From Candidatus Moanibacter sp. (GTDB taxonomy: Bacteria; Verrucomicrobiota; Verrucomicrobiia; Opitutales; UBA2987), in contig CBDCEW010000105.1 of assembly GCA_965215885.1 (NCBI GenBank), positions 367,549 to 431,548 on the forward strand: 64,000 bases of DNA. Direction: 5' to 3'. Positions 1 through 52,219 of the stretch are shown piece after piece (the stretch's first letter is position 1; each line of letters opens with the position of its first letter). A program made the translations under genes and the position numbers. Below the pieces are notes generated by a model that was not told where the DNA came from, searched no databases, and saw nothing but the letters and a program-made list of their open reading frames with translations.

Positions 1-77
1 TCTTGCGTGTTCTTGGTAAGGAGAGAACGTTGACCCGAGTACGAAAATTCTTGCAGAACTATGGAGAAATTCACTGA
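1..77 (+). CDS. 3' end of a gene cut by the window edge, probably glutamyl-tRNA synthetase
   Basis: Frame starting at nt 3 reads LRVLGKERTLTRVRKFLQNYGEIH*, resembling the GltX C-terminus (LGkerxlxRl); lies directly upstream of glnS. Confidence 0.5.
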   Translation, partial: LRVLGKERTLTRVRKFLQNYGEIH

Positions 78-142
78 TCTGCATCTCATCCGATATTTGA
101 CCGCATTCGCGCCAGATAATTCCAAATAATGTTGAATCCAGT

Positions 143-1876
143 ATGACTTCTGAAGAATCCGGAGTGCCAAAGCATTTTATCAGACAGGCTGTTTCTGATG
201 ATATGGAGAGTGGCCGTTGGAATGGTCGCGTGGTGACACGTTTCCCGCCGGAGCCGAATGGGCATCTCCATATCGGGCATGCCAAGTCGGTCTGTCTCAA
301 TTTTGGGATTGCCCGAGAGTTCGGAGGCACCTGCCATTTGCGTTTCGATGACACGAATCCGGAAAAGGAGGAAGCCGGCTTTGTCGAGGGGATTAAGGAA
401 GATATCCGTTGGCTGGGATGGAATTGGGGTGAGCACCTCTATTTCGCTTCGGATTATTTCGACACGCTGGCCAAATTTGCCATTCAGTTGATCGAAGCGG
501 GAAAGGCATATGTCTGCGATCTCAGTAGTGAAGATATCCGAAAATATCGCGGCACTTTGACAGAGCCGGGGCGGAACAGTCCCTACCGGAACCGAACGAT
601 TGAGGAGAATCTCGATCTGTTCGGGCGCATGAAAGATGGCGAATTTGAGGAAGGGGCTCGGGTCCTGAGAGCAAAGATCGATATGTCGGCGCCCAACCTG
701 AATATGAGGGATCCCGTGGTGTATCGGATCATCAAAATTCCTCACCACAGGACCGGGGATAGTTGGCACATATATCCGATGTATGATTTCGCCCATGGGC
801 AGTCGGATTCGATCGAGCAGGTAACCCATTCGCTCTGTACGATGGAGTTTGAAGACCATCGCCCGCTGTATGACTGGTTCCTCGATGCGCTCGAGATTTA
901 CCACCCGCAACAGATCGAATTCGCCCGACTCAATCTGAGCCATACGCTCCTGTACAAAAGGATGCTTTCGAGGCTTGTTGCTGAAGGTCATGTTGCGGGC
1001 TGGGACGATCCGCGTATGCCGACGCTTGCCGGGATGCGTCGCCGGGGCTATACTCCGGAAGCAATCAGAGAATTCTGCGAGCGGGTCGGAGTAGCCAGGC
1101 GAGACAACGTGGTCGATTTTGCGCTTCTCGAGCATTGCCTTCGGGAGGACTTGAACAAACGAGCCCTTCGTGTGATGGGCGTTCTACATCCGTTGAAGTT
1201 AGTGATCGATAACTATCCCGAGGATCTGATGGAGGAACTTGATGCCGTCAACAATCCGGAGGACCCGGCCGCAGGAACGCGCAAAGTGCCGTTTTCTCGC
1301 AACCTGTATATTGAGCGAGATGATTTCAGAGAGGAGGCTCCGCGAAAGTACTATCGCCTCGCTCCCGGAAGAGAAGTGCGGCTACGCTACGGCTACTACG
1401 TTACCTGCACGGGAGTGAATAAAGACGGGGAGACCGGGGAAGTAACCGAACTGCGCTGCACTTATGATCCGAAGACACGTGGCGGACATTCGCCCGACGG
1501 CCGAAAGGTAAAGGCGACGATTCATTGGGTGTCTGCCGCACATGCGATCGAGGCGGAGGCGCGGCTCTATAGTCGACTGTTTTCCAGTGAAAAACCCCAC
1601 CAGGCCTCAGACGGGAAAGACTTTATCTCGAATCTGAATCCCGATTCGCTGGAAGTTGCCAGATGCTTTGTTGAGCCGAGCCTGGCCGGGGCGCAGGGAG
1701 GTGGCATCTATCAGTTTGAGAGGCTGGGATACTTCTGCGTCGATACGATCGACTCAAACGAGGAACGACTCGTTTTCAACCGGACGGTGACTTTGCGCGA
1801 CTCCTGGTCGAAGATTGCAAGGAAACAGAGGAATCTTTCGGACGCATCTCCGTCGGAATCTCAATCCATCACCTAA
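143..1876 (+). CDS. glnS: Glutaminyl-tRNA synthetase
   Basis: [17 protein letters not shown] (HIGH motif), [37 protein letters not shown]. Confidence 0.97.
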
Positions 1877-1930
1877 AAATCCGTACCTCAAGGGAGTTTC
1901 TAAAGCTGGTTTCGGCAGAATCCTAGTCCT

Positions 1931-2416
1931 ATGACATCTCCTGCAAAGGTTCTATTTCTTGGTCTGGATGCCGCCGACAAGGACTTGATCTTTCGATGGT
2001 GCGAAGACGGGTTTCTTCCAAATATCGAAGCGTTTCGAAAAGAGAGCCTCTGGGGGCTTACGGCGAATCCTCCCGGTCTCTATACGGGCGCCGTCTGGCC
2101 TTCTTTTTACACTGGCGTTTCACCGGCGCGGCATGGCCGGTATTTCCACACTCAGCTCAGACGAGGGACCTATAAGACCTATGACTTTCGGATCACCGAT
2201 CTCAAGTGCGAACCTTTTTGGGACACATTGAGTCGAGCTGGTCTTCGTCTTTCCATAATTGACGTTCCCAAAGGCCCGCCGTCCAAGAAGCTGTGTGGAA
2301 TTCAGATCTGCGACTGGGGCACGCATGATCCCGAATTCTCGTCGCCGCGATTCTTCCCGCCCTCTCTCGCTTCTGAAGTGACTTCACGCTTCGGCAAGGA
2401 TCCTGTTGGGCGGTGC
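1931..2416 (+). pseudogene. N-terminal fragment of an alkaline-phosphatase-superfamily (nucleotide pyrophosphatase/phosphodiesterase) protein
   Basis: VLFLGLDAAD...LPNI...WPSFYTGVSPARHG...PFWDTLS motifs; recognisable sequence stops at about aa 162, where it meets an opposite-strand gene fragment. Confidence 0.75.
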
Positions 2417-2417
2417 T

Positions 2418-2639
2418 TGCCGCTTCCATTCCTTGATGCACGGGAAGTTCGATTACCTTTAAGGCGAGATCGGAAAAATCGGAAAGTAATGAGCGTGTAG
2501 TTTCGTCTGGACCGTCCTGAACTACTATAATTTCGATGTTGTTGATATTCTGTATCGTGATGCTTGCGATCGCCCGCATGAGGAGTTGCGGCCGATTGCG
2601 GGTCGGTATAACGACGCTCACGCTGGGAACTGCTGTCAT
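2418..2639 (-). pseudogene. N-terminal fragment of a family 2 glycosyltransferase
   Basis: VSVVIPTRNRPQLLMRAIASI..Q...IEIIVVQDGPDETT...QG.AA; truncated just before the expected AARN.G motif. Confidence 0.8.
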
Positions 2640-2720
2640 TCCTTGTCTTCGGGTTTTGCTGTTGAATAGGATGCTCGATTATGCATTCCTGTAAAATTGA
2701 AAAATCTGAAAGGCGAAATT

Positions 2721-4133
2721 ATGGTTAAGACACTGTTCGAAAAAGTCTGGGAGCGCCATATTGTCAGAGAACTGTCCAACGGTGAGTATCAGCTGTTTAT
2801 TGGTACACACCTTGTCCACGAAGTAACCAGCCCCCAGGCCTTCGGCATGTTGCATGAGATGGGTCTGGGGGTGCCTTTTCCTCACCGAACCTTTGCCACG
2901 GTCGATCATATTGTTCCCACGGATGATACTAAAGAACCTTTCAGTGACGCTGTGGCTGATGAGATGTTGCGCTACTTGCGACGAAACTGCGAGGAATACG
3001 GAATAACCTTTTTCGATCTGCATTCGGGAAGGCAGGGGATAGTACATGTTATCGGGCCCGAGCTGGGGATTACACAACCGGCTACGATGATCGCATGTGG
3101 AGACTCACATACTTCGACCCATGGCGCCTTTGGTGCGATTGCCTTCGGAATCGGGACATCACAGGTTCGCGATGTATTGGCTACACAGACACTGGCGATG
3201 GACAAGCTGAAAGTCCGCCGCGTCAATGTGGACGGCCAGCTTAGTCCAGGTGTTTACGCTAAGGATGTTATTCTGCATATTATCAGAAAACTTGGTGTTA
3301 ACGGAGGTATCGGGTTTGCCTATGAGTACGGTGGCGAGGTGTTTGACCGCTTCTCAATGGATGAGCGTATGACGGTGTGCAATATGTCGATTGAAGGGGG
3401 TGCGCGTTGTGGATATGTGAACCCCGATGATAAGACGTTTGATTATTTGAAGGGGCGTCCCTTTTGTCCCTCGGGTAATAAATGGGAAGAGGCCGTTCGC
3501 GATTGGCGCGAAATGGCGTCAGATCCCAATTGCCGATACGATGATGTGGCGACGTTCCGAGCGGAGGATATCGGACCGACCGTCACTTGGGGTCTCAACC
3601 CGGGGCAAGCTATCTTTATTGACGAAGAGGTTCCTTTTCCGGAGGAATTTCCCGAAGGGGAGAGAGCCAACGTCGAGGAAGCGCTGACCCACATGAAGCT
3701 CGCTTCGGGAAAGCCGATTAAGGGGACACCGATCGATGTCGCCTTTATCGGCAGCTGTACCAATAGCCGGCTCTCCGATCTCCAGGAGGCTGCACGCTTC
3801 GTGAAAGGGCGAAGGGTAGCGCCTGGAGTAAAGGCTCTTGTTGTTCCAGGCTCAAGTGGAGTCAGTGCACTTGCGGAGGAAATGGGAATTGCGGAGACAT
3901 TCCGTGAGGCCGGATTTGAATGGCGTGGCGCCGGATGCTCGATGTGCCTGGGAATGAATCCGGATAAGTTGGTGATGGACCAGCTCTGTGCGAGTTCGAG
4001 CAACCGAAATTTTAAGGGAAGACAGGGTAGCCCTTCGGGGCGCACTGTGTTGATGAGTCCGCTTATGGTGGCGGCGGCGGCAGTGGCCGGTGAAATCAGT
4101 GACGCACGCGAAGTGTTCGACGTCGCAAGTTAG
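2721..4133 (+). CDS. leuC: 3-isopropylmalate dehydratase large subunit
   Basis: [55 protein letters not shown] at 2721. Confidence 0.97.
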
Positions 4134-22889: not shown

Positions 22890-23279
22890 ACCGTTCTGCC
22901 CGGGACAGATACGTGTTTAGCGTGATGCCTTCGATTACCGGCTGCCCCGGTCTTGTGCCCATAATTACGAAATTGGGTTGGAGAACCCAAAGTAAATGTT
23001 ATTCAGGCACTTGCAAGATTCTATTGATTACATAGTATGCCAGAATGGAGTTTCAACGATTGTTGTGTGTGGGTTCGTTAGAGGTAGAGAGCTTTTCCTG
23101 CAGGTTTGTTTTCAGTTAGAAACTTGTTGAGTATTAATCAGTTACAAAAGCGCTTTGAACGGGGAGTTGATTTCTGGTGGCAATTGAGTAGAAGCGAAGG
23201 GAGCTGGAGAAAGTTGGTATTGGCATTGTATGTAAAATAGAGTTTGCAGTTTTGCCTCCTTTCCATACTGTGCCGGTGC

Positions 23280-23981
23280 ATGCAAGAAGAGCTTTCGCGT
23301 AAAGAGAGGGAGGTGGTCGAAGCGGTACGGCGGGATCGGGTAAGCACGGTGTGGAGGCTGATGAAGGAGCAGAGGGTGTCGCGGCGAACGGTCTATCGGG
23401 CTTTGCAAAAATATGGCCATTACTCCAGTTACAATGCCAATTGTGGCTACCTGAGCTTGAAAGACATTCCGCGCTTTGACGGGGCCGGTTTGTGGCGTTT
23501 TCGCAAGGGGCGCTTTTCGCGCCACGGCACCTTGGAGGAGACCGTGGAGGCGGTGGTGGGAGCTTCGCTTTGCGGCTACACGGTGGCTGAGTTGGAGACC
23601 CTCCTTGGGGTACGGGTGCACAACCCCATAAGCGTGCTTTGTAGAAAGAAGCGGTTGAGTCGATACTATGAAGGGCGTCACTGCGTGTATGTCTCGGCCG
23701 GGGAACAGGGCGGGGCCGAACAGAAAAAGCGGCGGCAAGGGCGAAGAACAGCGGCACAAGTTCAGGCAGGGGACCCCGGGGGCGCTTTGCAGGCAGCTCC
23801 CGAAGGGCTCGAAACGATGGTCGTGATCGCTTTGCTGGTCGCCTGTATCGGCCATCCCGAGGCCGGGGTCAAGGAGCTTGTCGAGCTTATGCAAGAGCAG
23901 GGAGTAGAGCTGAGCGGGGAGCAAATTGAGCGGGTGATGGCGTTTTACTCGCTCAAAAAAAAACCGGACCGATCGCGGTAG
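23280..23981 (+). CDS. Transposon ORF1, predicted tandem helix-turn-helix DNA-binding protein
   Basis: VSRRTVYRAL and YTVAELETLLG HTH-like segments; ends in an A9 run (KKK) just before ORF2. Confidence 0.65.
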   Translation: MQEELSRKEREVVEAVRRDRVSTVWRLMKEQRVSRRTVYRALQKYGHYSSYNANCGYLSLKDIPRFDGAGLWRFRKGRFSRHGTLEETVEAVVGASLCGYTVAELETLLGVRVHNPISVLCRKKRLSRYYEGRHCVYVSAGEQGGAEQKKRRQGRRTAAQVQAGDPGGALQAAPEGLETMVVIALLVACIGHPEAGVKELVELMQEQGVELSGEQIERVMAFYSLKKKPDRSR

Positions 23982-23998
23982 CGGAGCTGTTACATGAT

Positions 23999-25816
23999 TT
24001 GCGGGCAGAGGCTGAACGGGCCCTGCAAACGGTGGGGGCTGTGCCTGCGCAAACGAGTTATCGCTTCGATGCCCGGGAGGACGAAGAGGGTCCTTCAGAG
24101 GTGCGCAAGACCCTGCGCCGCAAGGTGGTCAGTTTCTCCTATGGATGCTTCCAGGCGGTGGAAGTTGTGCGCGAGCAGGGGCAAGGGAGCCACCGCAACA
24201 GCTACCGTTCTGCTCGCCTGGAACAGATCGTGCCCTCGCATAGTCGCTACGCTTACGATCTGATTGCCTATGTGGGCAAGCGATGTTTGTGCGAAAGCGC
24301 CACCCTCAAAGAGGTGCACAGGGAACTGCGCGAGGGCCCGGGGCAGCTGCAGATTGCTCAAAGCAGCCTCTATGAGATGCAGCAGAAGTTTCTTTTTTAT
24401 CTGGGTCGGCTGCACGCCGCGGCCGCTCCGGTGCTTAAAGATTACCTGAGCGCTCGCCCTTGCCTGCGCTGGCTGGTGGATGGGACCGTGGAACCGCAGA
24501 CGCCGGTTTTCTTCGCTGTTCAGGAAGCCGACGAAGGGATCCTTTTGGGCAGCTGGAAAATGCCTTCCGAACAGAGCGAAACGATCAGTGGCTGTTTTGC
24601 CCGGGCGGCCCGGGCTTTTGGCCAACCCCACCATGTCTATCATGATTTAAGCGCTCAGATCAGCAAGGCCTGCGAGAGCGAAACCTTCCAGGCCCCCCAT
24701 GGCGTCTGCCATTATCATTTCGCCCGCAATGTGGGCGAACAGCTTTATCGAAAACCCCAGCAGATGCTCAACGGGCGCTTGCGGCAATTGAAGCTCATGG
24801 AGCGCATGCGCGAGCAACGCAAACACATCACCGCAAAGCTCCGTGACGCCCTCCGTGAAAAACACGCCCTCGTCCTGGCCGATTTGCTCACCGCCAAAGC
24901 GCTCGCAGTGCCCTTCGATCCCACCCTTGCACGGGAACTGCTCATGGCCCTGCAATTGTGGATTTTGGATTATCCCTGCGACGGTCACCGCCAGGGCTTT
25001 CCCTTCGATCCTTACCTGCTTTATTGGCATCGGCGGGTCGTGCGCGCCCATGCCGCCCTGGAGCAGTGGCTTGCCCGCGCTCCTGCCAGTTGCTCTGTTC
25101 TGCGAAGCTTCTTTCATCTTTCGACCGGGTTGAAGCAGTATCTGGCTGATGCCCTCGTCATCGAAGCCGCTACTATCTATGAAAACGCTTTTTGCATTTT
25201 CAGCGCTTTGCGCGATGCCCTTTGGCTCAGCGCCAGCGGCCCCTGCCCTTTAAGCGACCCTTATCTGTTGCAAGCAGGACAAGCCGCTGAGCTCACCGAG
25301 GCTCTCCAGTTGCTGCGTGCCCAATATCGCCAAAAAGGCGCCTCCCTGACCAACCCCTCGAAAGCCAAACTCTACCGCACCGTGGTCACTCATCTGGACA
25401 AATACTGGCAGCGGCTGCTTCCCCCACCGGCCCATCCAGACAGCGTACGCACGACCAATGAGCTGGAAGGCACCTGGCGCACCTCCAAGCGCAAACGCCG
25501 TCAAACCCACGGGCGCAAAAATCTGACGCGCGACTTTGAAGCGCTCCCCGAAGAATACATGCTCCTGGCCAACTTACACAATCCCCGCTATGTGGAGCTG
25601 GTTTTAGGCAGTATCGATAATCTGCCCCAAAAGCTTGCCCAGGCTGCACAGAAAGCACCCCCCTTCAGTCACTGGCGGGCGAACAGAAAAACCCTCGCCG
25701 TGGGTCGATTGCCCAAAAAGCTCCTGCGAAAAGAAAACTTCCTTGAGGAACTCTTCGAAGTCTGTAATCGCCAGGATCAATCCTTAAACCCGCAACCCCA
25801 TCGGATTGCCTCCTGA
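23999..25816 (+). CDS. Transposon ORF2, putative DDE transposase with a large helical insertion
   Basis: WLVDGT (D1), YHDLS (D2), CHYHF (CxxH), RTTNELEG (E); this spacing is typical of Mutator/IS256-like enzymes; only a TTG start, and the frame is open back to the A9 run. Confidence 0.75.
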   Translation: MRAEAERALQTVGAVPAQTSYRFDAREDEEGPSEVRKTLRRKVVSFSYGCFQAVEVVREQGQGSHRNSYRSARLEQIVPSHSRYAYDLIAYVGKRCLCESATLKEVHRELREGPGQLQIAQSSLYEMQQKFLFYLGRLHAAAAPVLKDYLSARPCLRWLVDGTVEPQTPVFFAVQEADEGILLGSWKMPSEQSETISGCFARAARAFGQPHHVYHDLSAQISKACESETFQAPHGVCHYHFARNVGEQLYRKPQQMLNGRLRQLKLMERMREQRKHITAKLRDALREKHALVLADLLTAKALAVPFDPTLARELLMALQLWILDYPCDGHRQGFPFDPYLLYWHRRVVRAHAALEQWLARAPASCSVLRSFFHLSTGLKQYLADALVIEAATIYENAFCIFSALRDALWLSASGPCPLSDPYLLQAGQAAELTEALQLLRAQYRQKGASLTNPSKAKLYRTVVTHLDKYWQRLLPPPAHPDSVRTTNELEGTWRTSKRKRRQTHGRKNLTRDFEALPEEYMLLANLHNPRYVELVLGSIDNLPQKLAQAAQKAPPFSHWRANRKTLAVGRLPKKLLRKENFLEELFEVCNRQDQSLNPQPHRIAS

Positions 25817-26000
25817 CAACGACTCCAGTGCCCTCCCTCTGCTCCCCATTTTCTTCATGCTCTAACCAGAGAACTCCACGCAATTTGCGTGCCAACCGAA
25901 ATTCAGAACGATGGGCACAAGACCGGGGCAGCCAGCAATCAAAGGCTCACTAAACACGTACCGCGATTTGCCATCCAGGCTCCTAGACCGCATTCTCAGT

Positions 26001-27921: not shown

Positions 27922-30900
27922 ATGAATTTGTTAGTGGGCTTGGTGTCGAAATTTCCGAAAGCAAAGGAAGAATCACCGGGGGTTTTCGTGCGAATTTTTA
28001 TCCGAACCTTATTGTTCGGCTCTATTGGAGTTTTCTGGCTGTTCTCTTCCGGTTATTCCCAGGTCACGAGCACTTGGGAGTGGAAACAGGATGGCAGTGT
28101 CATTCCATGCCAGCCAAGTGATCCCAATCCGGCTGCGAGCATCGTTTGGACAGATACCCCGGAATGGCAAAAAGACGAAATCATGGGTCCGTCGCCATGA
28201 TTCAACATTGACCCGCCTCAGGTTATCTTGCAGCCCGGGAACTGGTCGACCGTTCTCTACCCGGACAACGCCAGAGGCGGCGGCGATTACAATGTCGTCA
28301 TCAGCTCCGGTCCGGAGCCGGTCCTCCTGGATACGGCGGAAATCAATCAGCTTACTGTGTCAGCTCCTCTCCAACTCGGATTCAGGGGACAGCTGACGAT
28401 CGCCGGTGGATTGGGGGAAAATACCAGTACCATAAGGCTGAACGACACATCGGGATCTTCGGGTCAACCTCCCGGCGCTGATACATCCCGCCTGCGATTC
28501 AGCGCGGACGCTCAGCTAATGGGAGCGACATCGGGACAGATTCAATTCGTCTCGCCCAATTTCAACGTGATCGAGTCGACTGCTCCTGGAATAACGCTGA
28601 CGATTGATTCTAATCAATCTATTGTCACGACTCCGGGAGGCGGTACCGCCTCCGGTAATAAGGGAGAGATTGGGATCGATCTGATCAATAACGGCCTCAT
28701 TCATGCCGACAATGGAACGATCCTGGTCAGTTCCAGCACGGTAACGAACAATGCGACATTAAGCGCGACCAACTCCGCCAACCTCGATATCTCGACCGGA
28801 AACTTCGACAACAGCAACGGTCAGATTACCGTTGATGCCACAAGCGGAGGGGAATTTATGAACAGTTCCATCTCGGGGGGAAATATTACTATTTCGGGCT
28901 CCGTCTTTTTTAACGCCTCCACCTTCTCCAATCTGAACATAGACGGAGGCGGGACGGTTACAATATTTAACCCCTCTTCCTTTAACAGCGTGGAACTGGA
29001 TTTGGGCCAAATCAATGTGAACACGAATCTGACTATCTCGGGAGAGACCGGCAACAACTCTTTGTTAATTTTGATTTCTGCCAGTCTGAAAATCGAAGGC
29101 AATGTGGACTTGTCGGGAATGGGCCGGATCGAGTTCAACACAGGCGGCGGAAACGGTATTTCGGGCAGCGGCGCCGGGCCTAACGTATTGAATATCGGAT
29201 CCGATCAGACCATCACGACAGATGGGGACGGGACCTTCGGTCCGATCGATGTCGACTTCGTTAATGAGGGGCAGATATTCGCCGATGGGGACGGGAGCCG
29301 GATTAATTTTGGCAATAACACGAATTCGACAAACAATGGTACCATCGCCGTGATCAATGGGGCGGATCTCGATTTTTTTATTACTTTGGATAATTCGAAC
29401 GGGCAGATCAGCGTGGATGCGACAAGCACAGCCGAGTTGGGAGGCACTATTATGGGAGGAAACGTCACTCTCGACGCGGGTGTTTTCTTCAACGCAGTCA
29501 CATTTGAGGGGGTGAATATGAACGGAAGTGGAACCGCGACCGTATTTAACGGTTCGCGCATTGACGGTGGGGCGTTGAGCCTTGGAGGCGTGTCCATTTC
29601 CAACCAACCGCTCACCCTAGGCGGCGCTCTGGTTAATAATGCGACCATCGCGCTCAGCGATCCATCTGCAGCGCCGGGTGGTGCGTCGCTTTTGGTAGAC
29701 GGTGCGGTAAGCCTCGGTGGTAACGGCCGGGTTGAGTTTTCAACTGCGCACTCCAACTCCATCGGGATCGCCGCGAATCCGGCGACGGATATCCTTACAG
29801 TCGAGGCAAATCAGACTATCGCGACTACAGCCGGCTCGAGCGGATTTATAAATCTAATGGTGATCAACAACGGAATTATCGAAGCCGATGGGGGCACCAT
29901 AACGTTCAGCAATGCGTTGACCAACCCGGGGCTTTTTCGGGCGCAGAATGGAGGCACCATAACCCAGCAGGCGGATATCGACAATACGGGAGGGACCATC
30001 TCAATATTGCCGGGGAGTACTTTCAATCTGGGCAGTGGCACGGAGATTGTCGGCGGCCTCATCGACGGCGGTGGATTCATGGGATTTATCGGTGACGGAA
30101 TCGTTATCTTCGATGGGGAGGGTATGGAGATTCGCGACGTAACGATTCAAATGAACACGCGGCAAACGATTGAGCCGAAGGGAATCATTACCAATAACGC
30201 CACAATCCTTCTCAATGACACGAATTTGGGGTGTGGTCAGTTCTTCAGCGAGGCTTCAAATATATACTTCAGAGAATCTGTTACAATAAACGGGACCGGG
30301 GAAATTGTCTTCAACACTTCTGAGTGCAATCAGTTTGTTGACTTGGTTGCCGGCATCTCATTCACCAACAGCGGCGGGCATACCTTAAGCGTACCGGAGG
30401 GCAATTACGGTCTCATCCGGATCGGTATGATCAACGAAGGGCAGATAAAGGTCGAAGGAGAACTGGAATTCTCGTGCTTCAACTTGACCAACGCGGCCGG
30501 TGGGAGCATCACGGGGAGCGGCATCTTGGATCTGCAGGGTGGAACCTTAATAAGCAGCGGTGATTTCGCGCCGGGAGATTCTGCCGGGACACTGAATATT
30601 CAGGGCACCTATACGCAGGATGCATCCGGATCGCTTTCGATCGAGATCGGCGGTTTAACAGCCGGCGGTAACTATGACCAATTGGCAGTTACGAACATTG
30701 CGAACCTAGACGGTACTTTGGATATTTCCCTCATTGACGAATTTACCCCCAGCGAAGGGCAGGTCTTTACAGTCCTGACTGCTTCGTCCGTGAGCCAGAC
30801 GTTTTCCAACATCCATCAGCCTCCTGATATGCCAAACGACCTGTTTTTCAGGGTAACTTACCTGGCAAGTTCGGTTACTTTGACGGTGGTTAAGATAAAT

Positions 30901-31315
30901 ATCTACAGTCTTTGGGTTGAGGCCAGGTTCCAACCGTCGGAACAGTCTGACGCCAACATAAGCGGGTTTGACAAGGACCCGGATGGAGACGGGCTGGCAA
31001 ATCTTCTCGAATACGCCTTTGTCCTCGATCCCAATTCCCCAAACGGCCGACCGATCGAGGTCGGCACAGCGGCGGAGGGAAATGATACTCTTTTTACGAT
31101 TACCTTTCCCTTTCCATCGGACTCGGGGAATACCGATCTGATACTGGACGTGGAAAGTTCAACGACTCTCCAAACGGCCAGCTTGGTCAACCGTAGGCTT
31201 TAACACCGAAACGCCGGTGCCCCAGGGAAATGGAATCGACCTCGTGACCGTGAAAGTGACTGTTCCGATTGGAGTTGGGCCGACATTTTATCGGCTTGTC
31301 CTCCAAATCGATTGA
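27922..31315 (+). pseudogene. Large secreted Gly/Asn/Thr-rich beta-helix adhesin-like protein with an in-frame TGA and a 1-nt insertion
   Basis: Signal-peptide-like segment in 27922..28200 is in frame with 28228..31203 across TGA 28198-28200; N.G.I.A..G repeats; autotransporter-passenger-like APGDSAGTL...YDQL.V; DPDGDGLANLLEYAF; true C-terminus WSTVG...TFYRLVLQID* lies in the +1 frame after ~31183. Confidence 0.8.
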
Positions 31316-51871: not shown

Positions 51872-51890
51872 TAATCACAAGCCGTCCCGT

Positions 51891-52152
51891 TAGCCCGCTT
51901 TTGCTTGCCCGCTCTGCCGTAGTATCTGTTTAGCGTGCCTTCGATTGCTGGCTGCCCCGGTCTTGTGCCGGGGTGGCGCGCGTTCCCTGCTATAAACCGT
52001 GTGCGCCTACCAACCCCTCCGGCAGGGGCGAAAAAGGACCGGTGGACCGGTGGGCATATTGTAGCCTGCGCCACCCCGGCACAAGACCGGGGCGCTCAGA
52101 CAGCTCGACAGGTAGGTGCCGTAGGGAAGAGCGGGCAAGCAAAAGCGGGCTA
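51891..52152. mobile_element. Non-autonomous MITE (51923-52114) related to the 22.9-kb transposon, nested inside a 25-bp hairpin
   Basis: tatctgtttagcgtgccttcgattgctggctgccccggtcttgtgcc matches the TIR; outer IR tagcccgcttttgcttgcccgctct; tgccgtag occurs on both sides. Confidence 0.8.
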
Positions 52153-52219
52153 GTGGAGCAATCGGCAAAGTTAAAGTTTTGAGGGCGGAGTCCGATATCT
52201 CATCGGGAGTAGATCTGTC

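Follow-up and report, generated by a model that had tools for sequence, protein, structure and literature searches.

What kind of mobile element, if any, occupies positions 22910–25960 of the 64,000-nucleotide stretch of the Candidatus Moanibacter sp. genome analysed here (the window)? The initial annotation of this locus located two plus-strand open reading frames (ORFs), ORF1 (23280–23981, 233 aa) and ORF2 (23999–25816, 605 aa), both of which were confirmed, and described them as a Mutator-like transposon with terminal inverted repeats (TIRs) of about 70 bp, an accessory gene and no target duplication. The best explanation, which we consider very likely to be correct, is an active insertion sequence (IS) belonging to an apparently unnamed family within the IS256-related, Mutator-like DDE superfamily.

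The IS is real and recently amplified. About 30 copies, more than 99% alike, were found in its own genome (6.36 Mb in 105 contigs), in many of which the alignment to the unit initially proposed is confined to bases 49–3006. When the copies were lined up by their ends, the boundary common to 33 left and 33 right ends corresponded to positions 22959 and 25914 of the window, with the IS on the plus strand. Contigs from four public runs, belonging to four studies and including one run that may be the source sample, start at 22958/22959, and the depth over the IS in these runs is about 15–30 times that of its flanks, a ratio which does not equal the copy number. As far as can be read from its copies, the line-up shows an element of 2,956 bp with 23-bp TIRs and a 9-bp target duplication, inserted at the axis of a 19-bp palindrome. 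The left TIR (22959–22981, plus strand) begins with CCAT; in the window copy it is identical to the right TIR (25892–25914, minus strand) at 17 of 23 positions, and both fit the consensus of 135 unique ends of the family. Among the 30 genome copies with paired left and right ends, the 9-bp direct repeat is exact in 12, one base off in four and two bases off in one, while the 9-mers of the other 13, including the window copy, are unmatched. The reported absence of a target duplication thus holds for the window copy, around which a direct repeat was sought and none was found, but not for the element.

The flanks of the IS are the halves of a GC-rich palindrome, CCCCG-N9-CGGGG (19 bp). The 14-base half-site is matched with at most one mismatch, at the palindrome apex, by 57 of the 66 genome ends, and with at most two mismatches by 51 of 59 unique flanks; among genome positions, the frequency of matches with up to two mismatches is 2.5e-5. 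Empty sites of the form CCCCGG-N7-CCGGGG number 83 in the genome, versus no more than 10 for any other loop length. Most empty palindromes occur as inverted pairs within an element of about 245 bp that starts with TACGTGTTTAG and is termed here a MITE (miniature inverted-repeat transposable element); 18 of these doublets are empty. The 8-bp duplication of the MITE itself has decayed; 14 of 22 short rows, one of them a contig-edge artefact, keep it with at most two mismatches. An empty MITE is also present in the window (51922–52115), with unoccupied palindromes at 51955–51973 and 52074–52092 and a near-perfect 8-bp flanking duplication; folded as DNA, it has a z-score of −6.8. A second palindromic repeat, with arms ending in GATT, also fits CCCCG-N9-CGGGG and occurs at 22 sites (e.g., C98:148360 and C80:24970, C-numbers denoting contigs of the source genome). 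It has supplied only about one IS end, indicating that loop or arm letters matter too.

Related elements were compared at 120 loci for the join between the ORFs, four of these loci coming from the search of the host's own phylum, and among 59 homologues for motif counts. ORF2 matches 792 clusters at 50% identity, and family loci come from records of at least six phyla: Thermodesulfobacteriota, Planctomycetota, Pseudomonadota, Acidobacteriota, Chloroflexota and Spirochaetota. Only five of 300 genomes of the host's own phylum, one of them marginally, contained a match, which suggests patchy horizontal spread. With ORF2 as the query, no relative was found in the genome contig collection, in 40 related genomes or in plasmids, and the family alignment found none in viral contigs. 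The elements are 2.43–2.86 kb long (51 pairs of ends), with the TIR consensus C-N-A-T-c-g-TTCCGAAATT-y-GGTTGG and a C at position 1 in 99% of the 135 ends. Exact 9-bp duplications were found in 14 of the 51 pairs, namely 9 of the 18 whose flanks are long and 5 of the 33 whose flanks are short; the only duplication of another length was a single 4-base match.

The motif C..CS occupies positions −14 to −10 at 85 of 132 unique family ends. The outer bases of the 9-mer are complementary more often than in shuffled controls, with values of 0.70 versus 0.35 for the pair −9:−1 and 0.73 versus 0.40 for −8:−2, and this complementarity holds when one end is taken per cluster at 90, 70 or 60% identity (60, 24 and 12 clusters). 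The letters of the stem differ between hosts, with G-C, A-T, C-G or G-T at one position, while pairing is kept. Two rebuilt targets are repeated in their hosts: the first has 28 repeats in genome G343 and is absent from four other genomes, and the second has 26 repeats in G341 and two in G343. In relatives from several phyla, the flanks thus place the insertions at palindrome axes as well, and the palindrome was a host repeat in two of the three hosts tested. At one locus (L094), the insertion lies inside a glycoside hydrolase gene; relatives use weak non-repeat sites too.

The predicted structure of ORF1 (predicted local distance difference test score, pLDDT, 87.8) and its fold matches reveal three helix-turn-helix (HTH) or winged-HTH modules, at residues ~3–65, 80–145 and 170–232, the middle one being winged. 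Each module matches winged-HTH folds with Z of 7–8.4, which indicates a common fold only; Pfam HTH matches remained below threshold. ORF1 is homologous to the N-terminus of fused relatives of 765–1065 aa and is presumably the N-terminal DNA-binding part of the transposase. Near the end of ORF1 lies a slippery run of nine adenines (A9, 23955–23963), from which the frame of ORF2 (−1) is open. Of the 120 related loci, 11 are truncated, two lack ORF1 and 107 carry both ORFs; a run of seven to ten adenines, from which the ORF2 frame is open without exception, is present at the join in 104 of these 107. Six natural fusions (P0026, P0055, P0064, P0111, P0129 and P0147) carry both parts in one protein of 765–1065 aa. 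ORF1 and ORF2 thus most likely encode a single transposase of about 840 aa, joined at the adenine run.

The phase of the join is −1 in 87, +1 in 19 and in frame in one of the 107 loci before dereplication, and −1 in 73, +1 in 18 and fused in one of the 92 dereplicated loci. Within the source genome, 16 of the 34 copies have an A8 run and 18 an A9 run. The occurrence of both −1 and +1 joins, together with fused relatives, leads us to infer transcriptional slippage, which is described as efficient on runs of nine adenines in a review (PMC5009743); several IS are said there to use transcriptional realignment. Ribosomal −1 frameshifting on A_AAA_AAA is possible for most copies. That it accounts for the join altogether, the +1 (A8-type) copies being dead mutants or sequencing errors, we regard as rather unlikely. 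This alternative fits the 87 of 107 loci in −1 phase, the presence of A_AAA_AAA in the common phases and the other small indels in some copies of the assembly, but 18 of the 92 dereplicated loci are in +1 phase, and the A8 form occurs in contigs of three of the four public runs, being the sole form shown in run X3. Moreover, according to the same review, +1 ribosomal frameshifting had not been identified in any IS (PMC5009743), and neither Shine-Dalgarno motifs nor downstream hairpins are enriched at the −1 sites. Slightly better folding was seen at the 18 +1 sites (mean z of −1.17, five below −2).

The catalytic residues of ORF2 are D161 (LVDGT, 24479), D216 (YHDLS, 24644), C237 and H240 (24707 and 24716) and E490 (TTNELE, 25466), the last preceded by an insertion domain of about 240 aa. 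All of these motifs had been recognised in the initial annotation, and the five residues are invariant in 59 of 59 homologues. The AlphaFold model (pLDDT 91) places them on a strand, at a strand end, at a helix start and on a helix, and is consistent with an RNase H fold carrying a helical insert. The best structural match is the transposase of ISCth4 (Z 12.3, root mean square deviation 7.1, 316 aligned residues), in agreement with the Mutator/IS256-like layout first proposed, followed by Hermes (Z 11.2, 5.3, 326 residues) and then by retroviral integrases. A sequence-profile search for solved structures yielded none, apart from one chance match (E 0.16). The CxxH motif follows the second aspartate (D2) by 21–25 aa in the homologues and by 21 in ISCth4, against 11–19 in the description of the Mutator-like superfamily, p-MULT (PMC3942029). 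The distance from D2 to the glutamate is 274 aa in ORF2 and 261–308 aa in 59 of 59 homologues. In ISCth4, for which D241 and E348 are given (PMC7780238), it is 107 aa, and the helical insert of p-MULT 1–5 is 99–138 aa long where it is described (PMC3942029). A zinc-ribbon-like cysteine pattern is present in 29 of the 59 homologues; the clade of the window element lacks it.

These features place the element in the Mutator-like superfamily, with DDE residues on an RNase H fold, a helical insert and CxxH after D2; the 23-bp inverted repeat and 9-bp direct repeat fall within the p-MULT range of 18–39 bp and 8–9 bp, with a terminal C. By the NCBIfam and Pfam models and the published descriptions, the family is likely to be an unnamed one. 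That profiles have missed a divergent member of one of the named families (IS256, ISH6, ISLre2, ISKra4/ISMich2, IS66, ISL3 or an ISNCY group) is an unlikely alternative, for which the signs are several: 26 of the 59 homologues weakly match the IS256 model (best E 4.7e-11), Pfam thresholds are reached by two fused relatives for MULE and, marginally, by one for Transposase_mut and DDE_Tnp_ISL3, the ends fit the p-MULT description as above, ISMich2 also uses a −1 frameshift, and in the ESM Atlas a 506-aa cluster bearing the name “ISNCY family transposase” scores 0.96. However, ORF2 reaches only 28 of the 150 bits of the IS256 cut-off (NF033543) and 12 further relatives at most 28.6; against any NCBIfam IS model these 12 obtained no more than 32.6 bits. 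The D2–E spacing exceeds the insert length of all five p-MULT groups (IS256, ISH6, ISLre2, ISKra4 and the Mycoplasma integrative and conjugative element). IS256 has a single ORF and its insertion is described as lacking a flanking motif, whereas two frames are found in 106 of 107 loci here, along with a strong flank motif. Besides the IS, the family profile picks up a single transposase-like ORF in the genome (E 2.5e-4); the 27 IS66 matches are all missed.

The other models gave similar results. For ISH6 (NF041731), the best E-value among the 59 homologues was 1.2e-5 and the score in the 12 relatives 18.1 of 240 bits, and its AT-rich direct-repeat consensus AANATNTT differs from the GC-rich duplications of the present family. 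No ISLre2 or ISKra4 model was matched at E ≤ 0.01 by the 59 homologues, the presence of these models in the library not having been separately confirmed. IS66, including the resident copies, has GTAA ends and 8-bp direct repeats instead of CCAT and 9 bp, and its model (NF033517) yields at most 23.6 of 180 bits. The ISL3 model (NF033550) yields at most 25.2 of 180 bits, although one relative marginally passes Pfam PF01610 (23.6 versus 23). Three fused relatives marginally pass Pfam MULE, Transposase_mut or ISL3 and one passes DDE_Tnp_IS240, which supports the superfamily but no single family. A literature search, largely outside subscription journals, found no description of the family and nothing on four ISNCY group names. 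None of the best 120 homologues listed is named a transposase, and the family is annotated as hypothetical proteins, so that pipelines miss it as mobile DNA. With no NCBIfam IS cut-off reached, the suggestion of an undescribed group made in the initial annotation stands, while three of the four features on which its novelty had been argued are not supported. RNA guidance of the IS110/IS1111 type was considered and rejected: the longest match to an element's own target averaged 5.6 versus 5.4 with swapped targets (60 loci), and no Rfam match was found. A scan of the left end of the window copy alone found no promoter-like sites.

It is very unlikely that ORF1 is a separately made accessory protein, as the initial annotation proposed and as in IS66 TnpA/B, with ORF2 translated from its own start. 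A TTG codon at 23999 does open the 605-aa frame, and gene callers report proteins of about 600 aa. Against this, the adenine run, from which the ORF2 frame is in every case open, has been retained in 104 of 107 loci, natural fusions occur in both clades, as delimited by a quick IQ-TREE run on 73 selected rows with no outgroup, and the called ORF2 proteins have ragged N-termini.

The long inverted repeat of the window copy is real (72/69 bp, 22910–22981 and 25892–25960), although only its inner 23 bp belong to the IS. The outer ~50 bp are arms of the target MITE, as evidenced by their occurrence in the 18 empty doublets, and the unrelated MITE that the initial annotation had named as the other possible owner of such repeats accounts for most of the length. 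That the whole unit moves as one, with 70-bp TIRs and no duplication, is practically untenable, since, in spite of inverted flanks in several other genome copies and in 7 of 51 family loci, the outer arms vary from copy to copy and are also found without the IS, the inner 23 bp are all that is shared by copies with other flanks, the right flank of the window copy belongs with another locus, and the 9-bp duplications of other copies lie at the inner boundary.

The missing duplication of the window copy is attributed to a hybrid origin from two insertions, the left 9-mer coming from one insertion orientation and the right one from the opposite. The left flank (22909–22958, plus strand) is an outer MITE arm, also found in empty MITEs, ending in a palindrome half and the 9-mer GTCTTGTGC (22950–22958). 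The right flank (25915–25961, minus strand), with the 9-mer GCACAAGAC (25915–25923), is the outer arm of a different MITE copy and belongs with the locus on contig C92, the left flank of whose IS copy it matches by the 9-mer. The MITE end there agrees by an 8-mer with two mismatches, the only match among those listed for that end, and an outer inverted repeat of 24 bp has one arm at 25975–25998 (plus strand) and the other on C92, outside the MITE. From their sequences, we take the genes flanking the window IS to be uppS (left) and rpiB (right). The tsaD gene adjoins rpiB or lies one gene away in all three relatives fetched, and its orthologue in the source genome is located 243 bp from the C92 copy; uppS and rpiB are widely separated in genomes G002, G032, G039 and G337. 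Two insertions of opposite orientation into two MITE copies would leave two similar arms in facing positions, which would look like a 70-bp TIR that lacks a duplication. The hybrid is explained both by recombination between copies more than 99% identical and by a mis-join in the assembly. No contig of the four public runs spans the whole element; a joint 22959–25914 in run X4 has 20 letters on its short side, may stem from another MITE copy and was not used. ISRm22 likewise has hybrid copies lacking matching duplications, according to its description (PMC1525189).

The following scheme would be consistent with these data. RNA polymerase may slip on the A8/A9 run, so that a minority of transcripts encode the catalytic domain fused to the three HTH modules, a protein of ~840 aa, whereas unslipped transcripts would yield ORF1 alone, which may act as a repressor, as in other two-ORF IS. 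A transposase dimer would bind the TIRs via the HTH modules, and transposition could proceed by copy-out/paste-in through a circle, by analogy with ISCth4/IS256. The target would be read symmetrically, the C-x-x-C-S arms lying 5 bp beyond a staggered cut of 9 bp with self-complementary ends, thus steering insertion into intergenic hairpins of the MITE type or resembling repetitive extragenic palindromes (REPs).

Several observations weigh against this interpretation. Transposition, slippage and a circle have not been observed, and no end-to-end IS joint is listed in the contigs of the four public runs. Nine of the 66 genome ends have more than two mismatches to the half-site, and Y1 transposase genes adjoin only two of 86 scanned ends. 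An exact 9-bp duplication is missing from 37 of the 51 family pairs, many of which are short collapsed contigs, although 9 of the 18 with long flanks also lack it. Complementarity of the −7:−3 pair is not significant (0.42 versus 0.38), and the third rebuilt target has only one other copy in its own host and five in G343. In a sister clade (two elements with AT-rich flanks), none of eight ends, read by eye, carries the C..CS arm, which means that not all members target in this way. For the left flank of the window copy no partner was found, and since genes upstream of uppS vary among four relatives, none could be traced.

A more speculative idea, which we consider doubtful, is that the transposase reads DNA shape more than sequence, finding by means of loose C-x-x-C-S arms where an extruded hairpin or cruciform has its apex; the enlarged insertion domain or one of the HTH modules could then be the reader. 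The loose consensus is matched by 10,287 sites of the source genome and a tighter one by 428, yet nearly all insertions fall in the hairpin class. The same data are accounted for by a plain palindromic sequence preference of the dimer that evolves with each host. If shape were read, one family could settle in the REP or MITE palindromes of any given host, a structure-guided safe-harbour habit; none was reported for a Mutator-like enzyme in the literature searched.

A second MITE subfamily of about 245 bp has the same GTACGTGTTTAGCG ends but no target palindrome (e.g., C23:1244–1488 and C67:37583–37827), and its 8-bp duplications have at most two mismatches in 11 of 20 rows. Its ends resemble those of IS66. 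No autonomous partner was found in the genome for either subfamily. The resident IS66 was rejected as such a partner: both have GTA- ends and 8-bp duplications, yet the TIR letters differ. A REP-associated tyrosine transposase was also rejected, the palindrome lying within 1.5 kb of only one of 28 Y1_Tnp places checked (29 listed); this place is a multicopy IS200-like gene, the other copies of which lack the palindrome. Intact IS200/IS605 ends are likewise not general targets, given the two of 86 ends with an adjoining Y1_Tnp (150 of 160 candidate frames scanned). Rfam matches on locus L006 are all under the gathering score and are located on the MITE hairpin. In the region 51890–52153 of the window, the empty MITE lies inside the loop of a longer inverted repeat, as at the C92/window locus; the order of nesting is a hairpin, the MITE with its 8-bp duplication and the IS with its 9-bp duplication.

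Other mobile elements are present in the source genome (G000), which is rich in recently expanded IS and contains the 27 IS66 matches. An element of about 1.91 kb with a 556-aa DDE_Tnp_1 transposase is inserted in several copies of the IS described here, at locus L163 (G000:C99:135800–137850), C79, C96, C105:11097–13016 and, as a tandem pair, C89. The multicopy IS200-like element (152-aa frame, GC-rich right-end hairpin) is located at C2:12509 and eight more places. Identical flanks on C10/C99, C10/C81, C30/C79 and C81/C105 point to redundant or mixed-strain sequence in the assembly, for which contamination is estimated at 5.5%. Elsewhere in the window, a 991-aa glycine/asparagine-rich ORF (28228–31203) presumably resembles autotransporter passenger repeat proteins.

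The element is probably the representative of a new Mutator-like IS family with hairpin targeting. It provides a prokaryotic DDE enzyme with an insertion domain of eukaryotic size, a point of comparison between IS256 and hAT-type transposases, and its A8 and A9 copies within one genome make a natural test of two-way slippage. Clade-wide insertion into repeated palindromes spares genes and makes sequence and structure recognition testable with one enzyme. As a caution, repeat targeting followed by recombination can create false long TIRs without duplications.

Overall, the element resembles IS256-type elements in its presumed way of working, but by the features tested is not a member of IS256. 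With ISCth4 TnpA (p-MULT 1; PDB 6xg8) it shares the RNase H fold, the residues D and D, CxxH 21 residues after D2, a helical insertion domain and E, as well as TIRs ending in C and an 8–9-bp duplication. ISCth4, however, has one ORF of about 400 aa, a four-helix insert (residues 261–325), a D2–E distance of 107 aa and unspecific A/T-rich targets, in contrast to about 840 aa in two frames, 274 aa, three HTH modules and GC-rich palindromic targets. The ISMich2 group of ISKra4 (p-MULT 4) also combines a Mutator-like transposase with two ORFs and a conserved frameshift, but its description (PMC3942029) gives an insert of 99–138 aa and a −1 frameshift only. The eukaryotic hAT transposase Hermes has a similarly large helical insertion domain with CxxH and differs in its N-terminus, with 11% identity to ORF2. 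Insertion into REPs is not a new habit in itself, being known in other IS families from single elements: copies of ISRm22 (IS4), ISPsy8 and IS1397 (IS3) and ISPpu9/10 (IS110) lie at the axis of a repeated palindrome, whereas here the habit spans a whole clade across phyla. The only IS256 case in one such study, ISRm5, lies near REPs without breaking them (PMC1525189). The distinguishing features of the present family are its three HTH modules, very long insertion domain, two-way slippage and insertion at palindrome axes.

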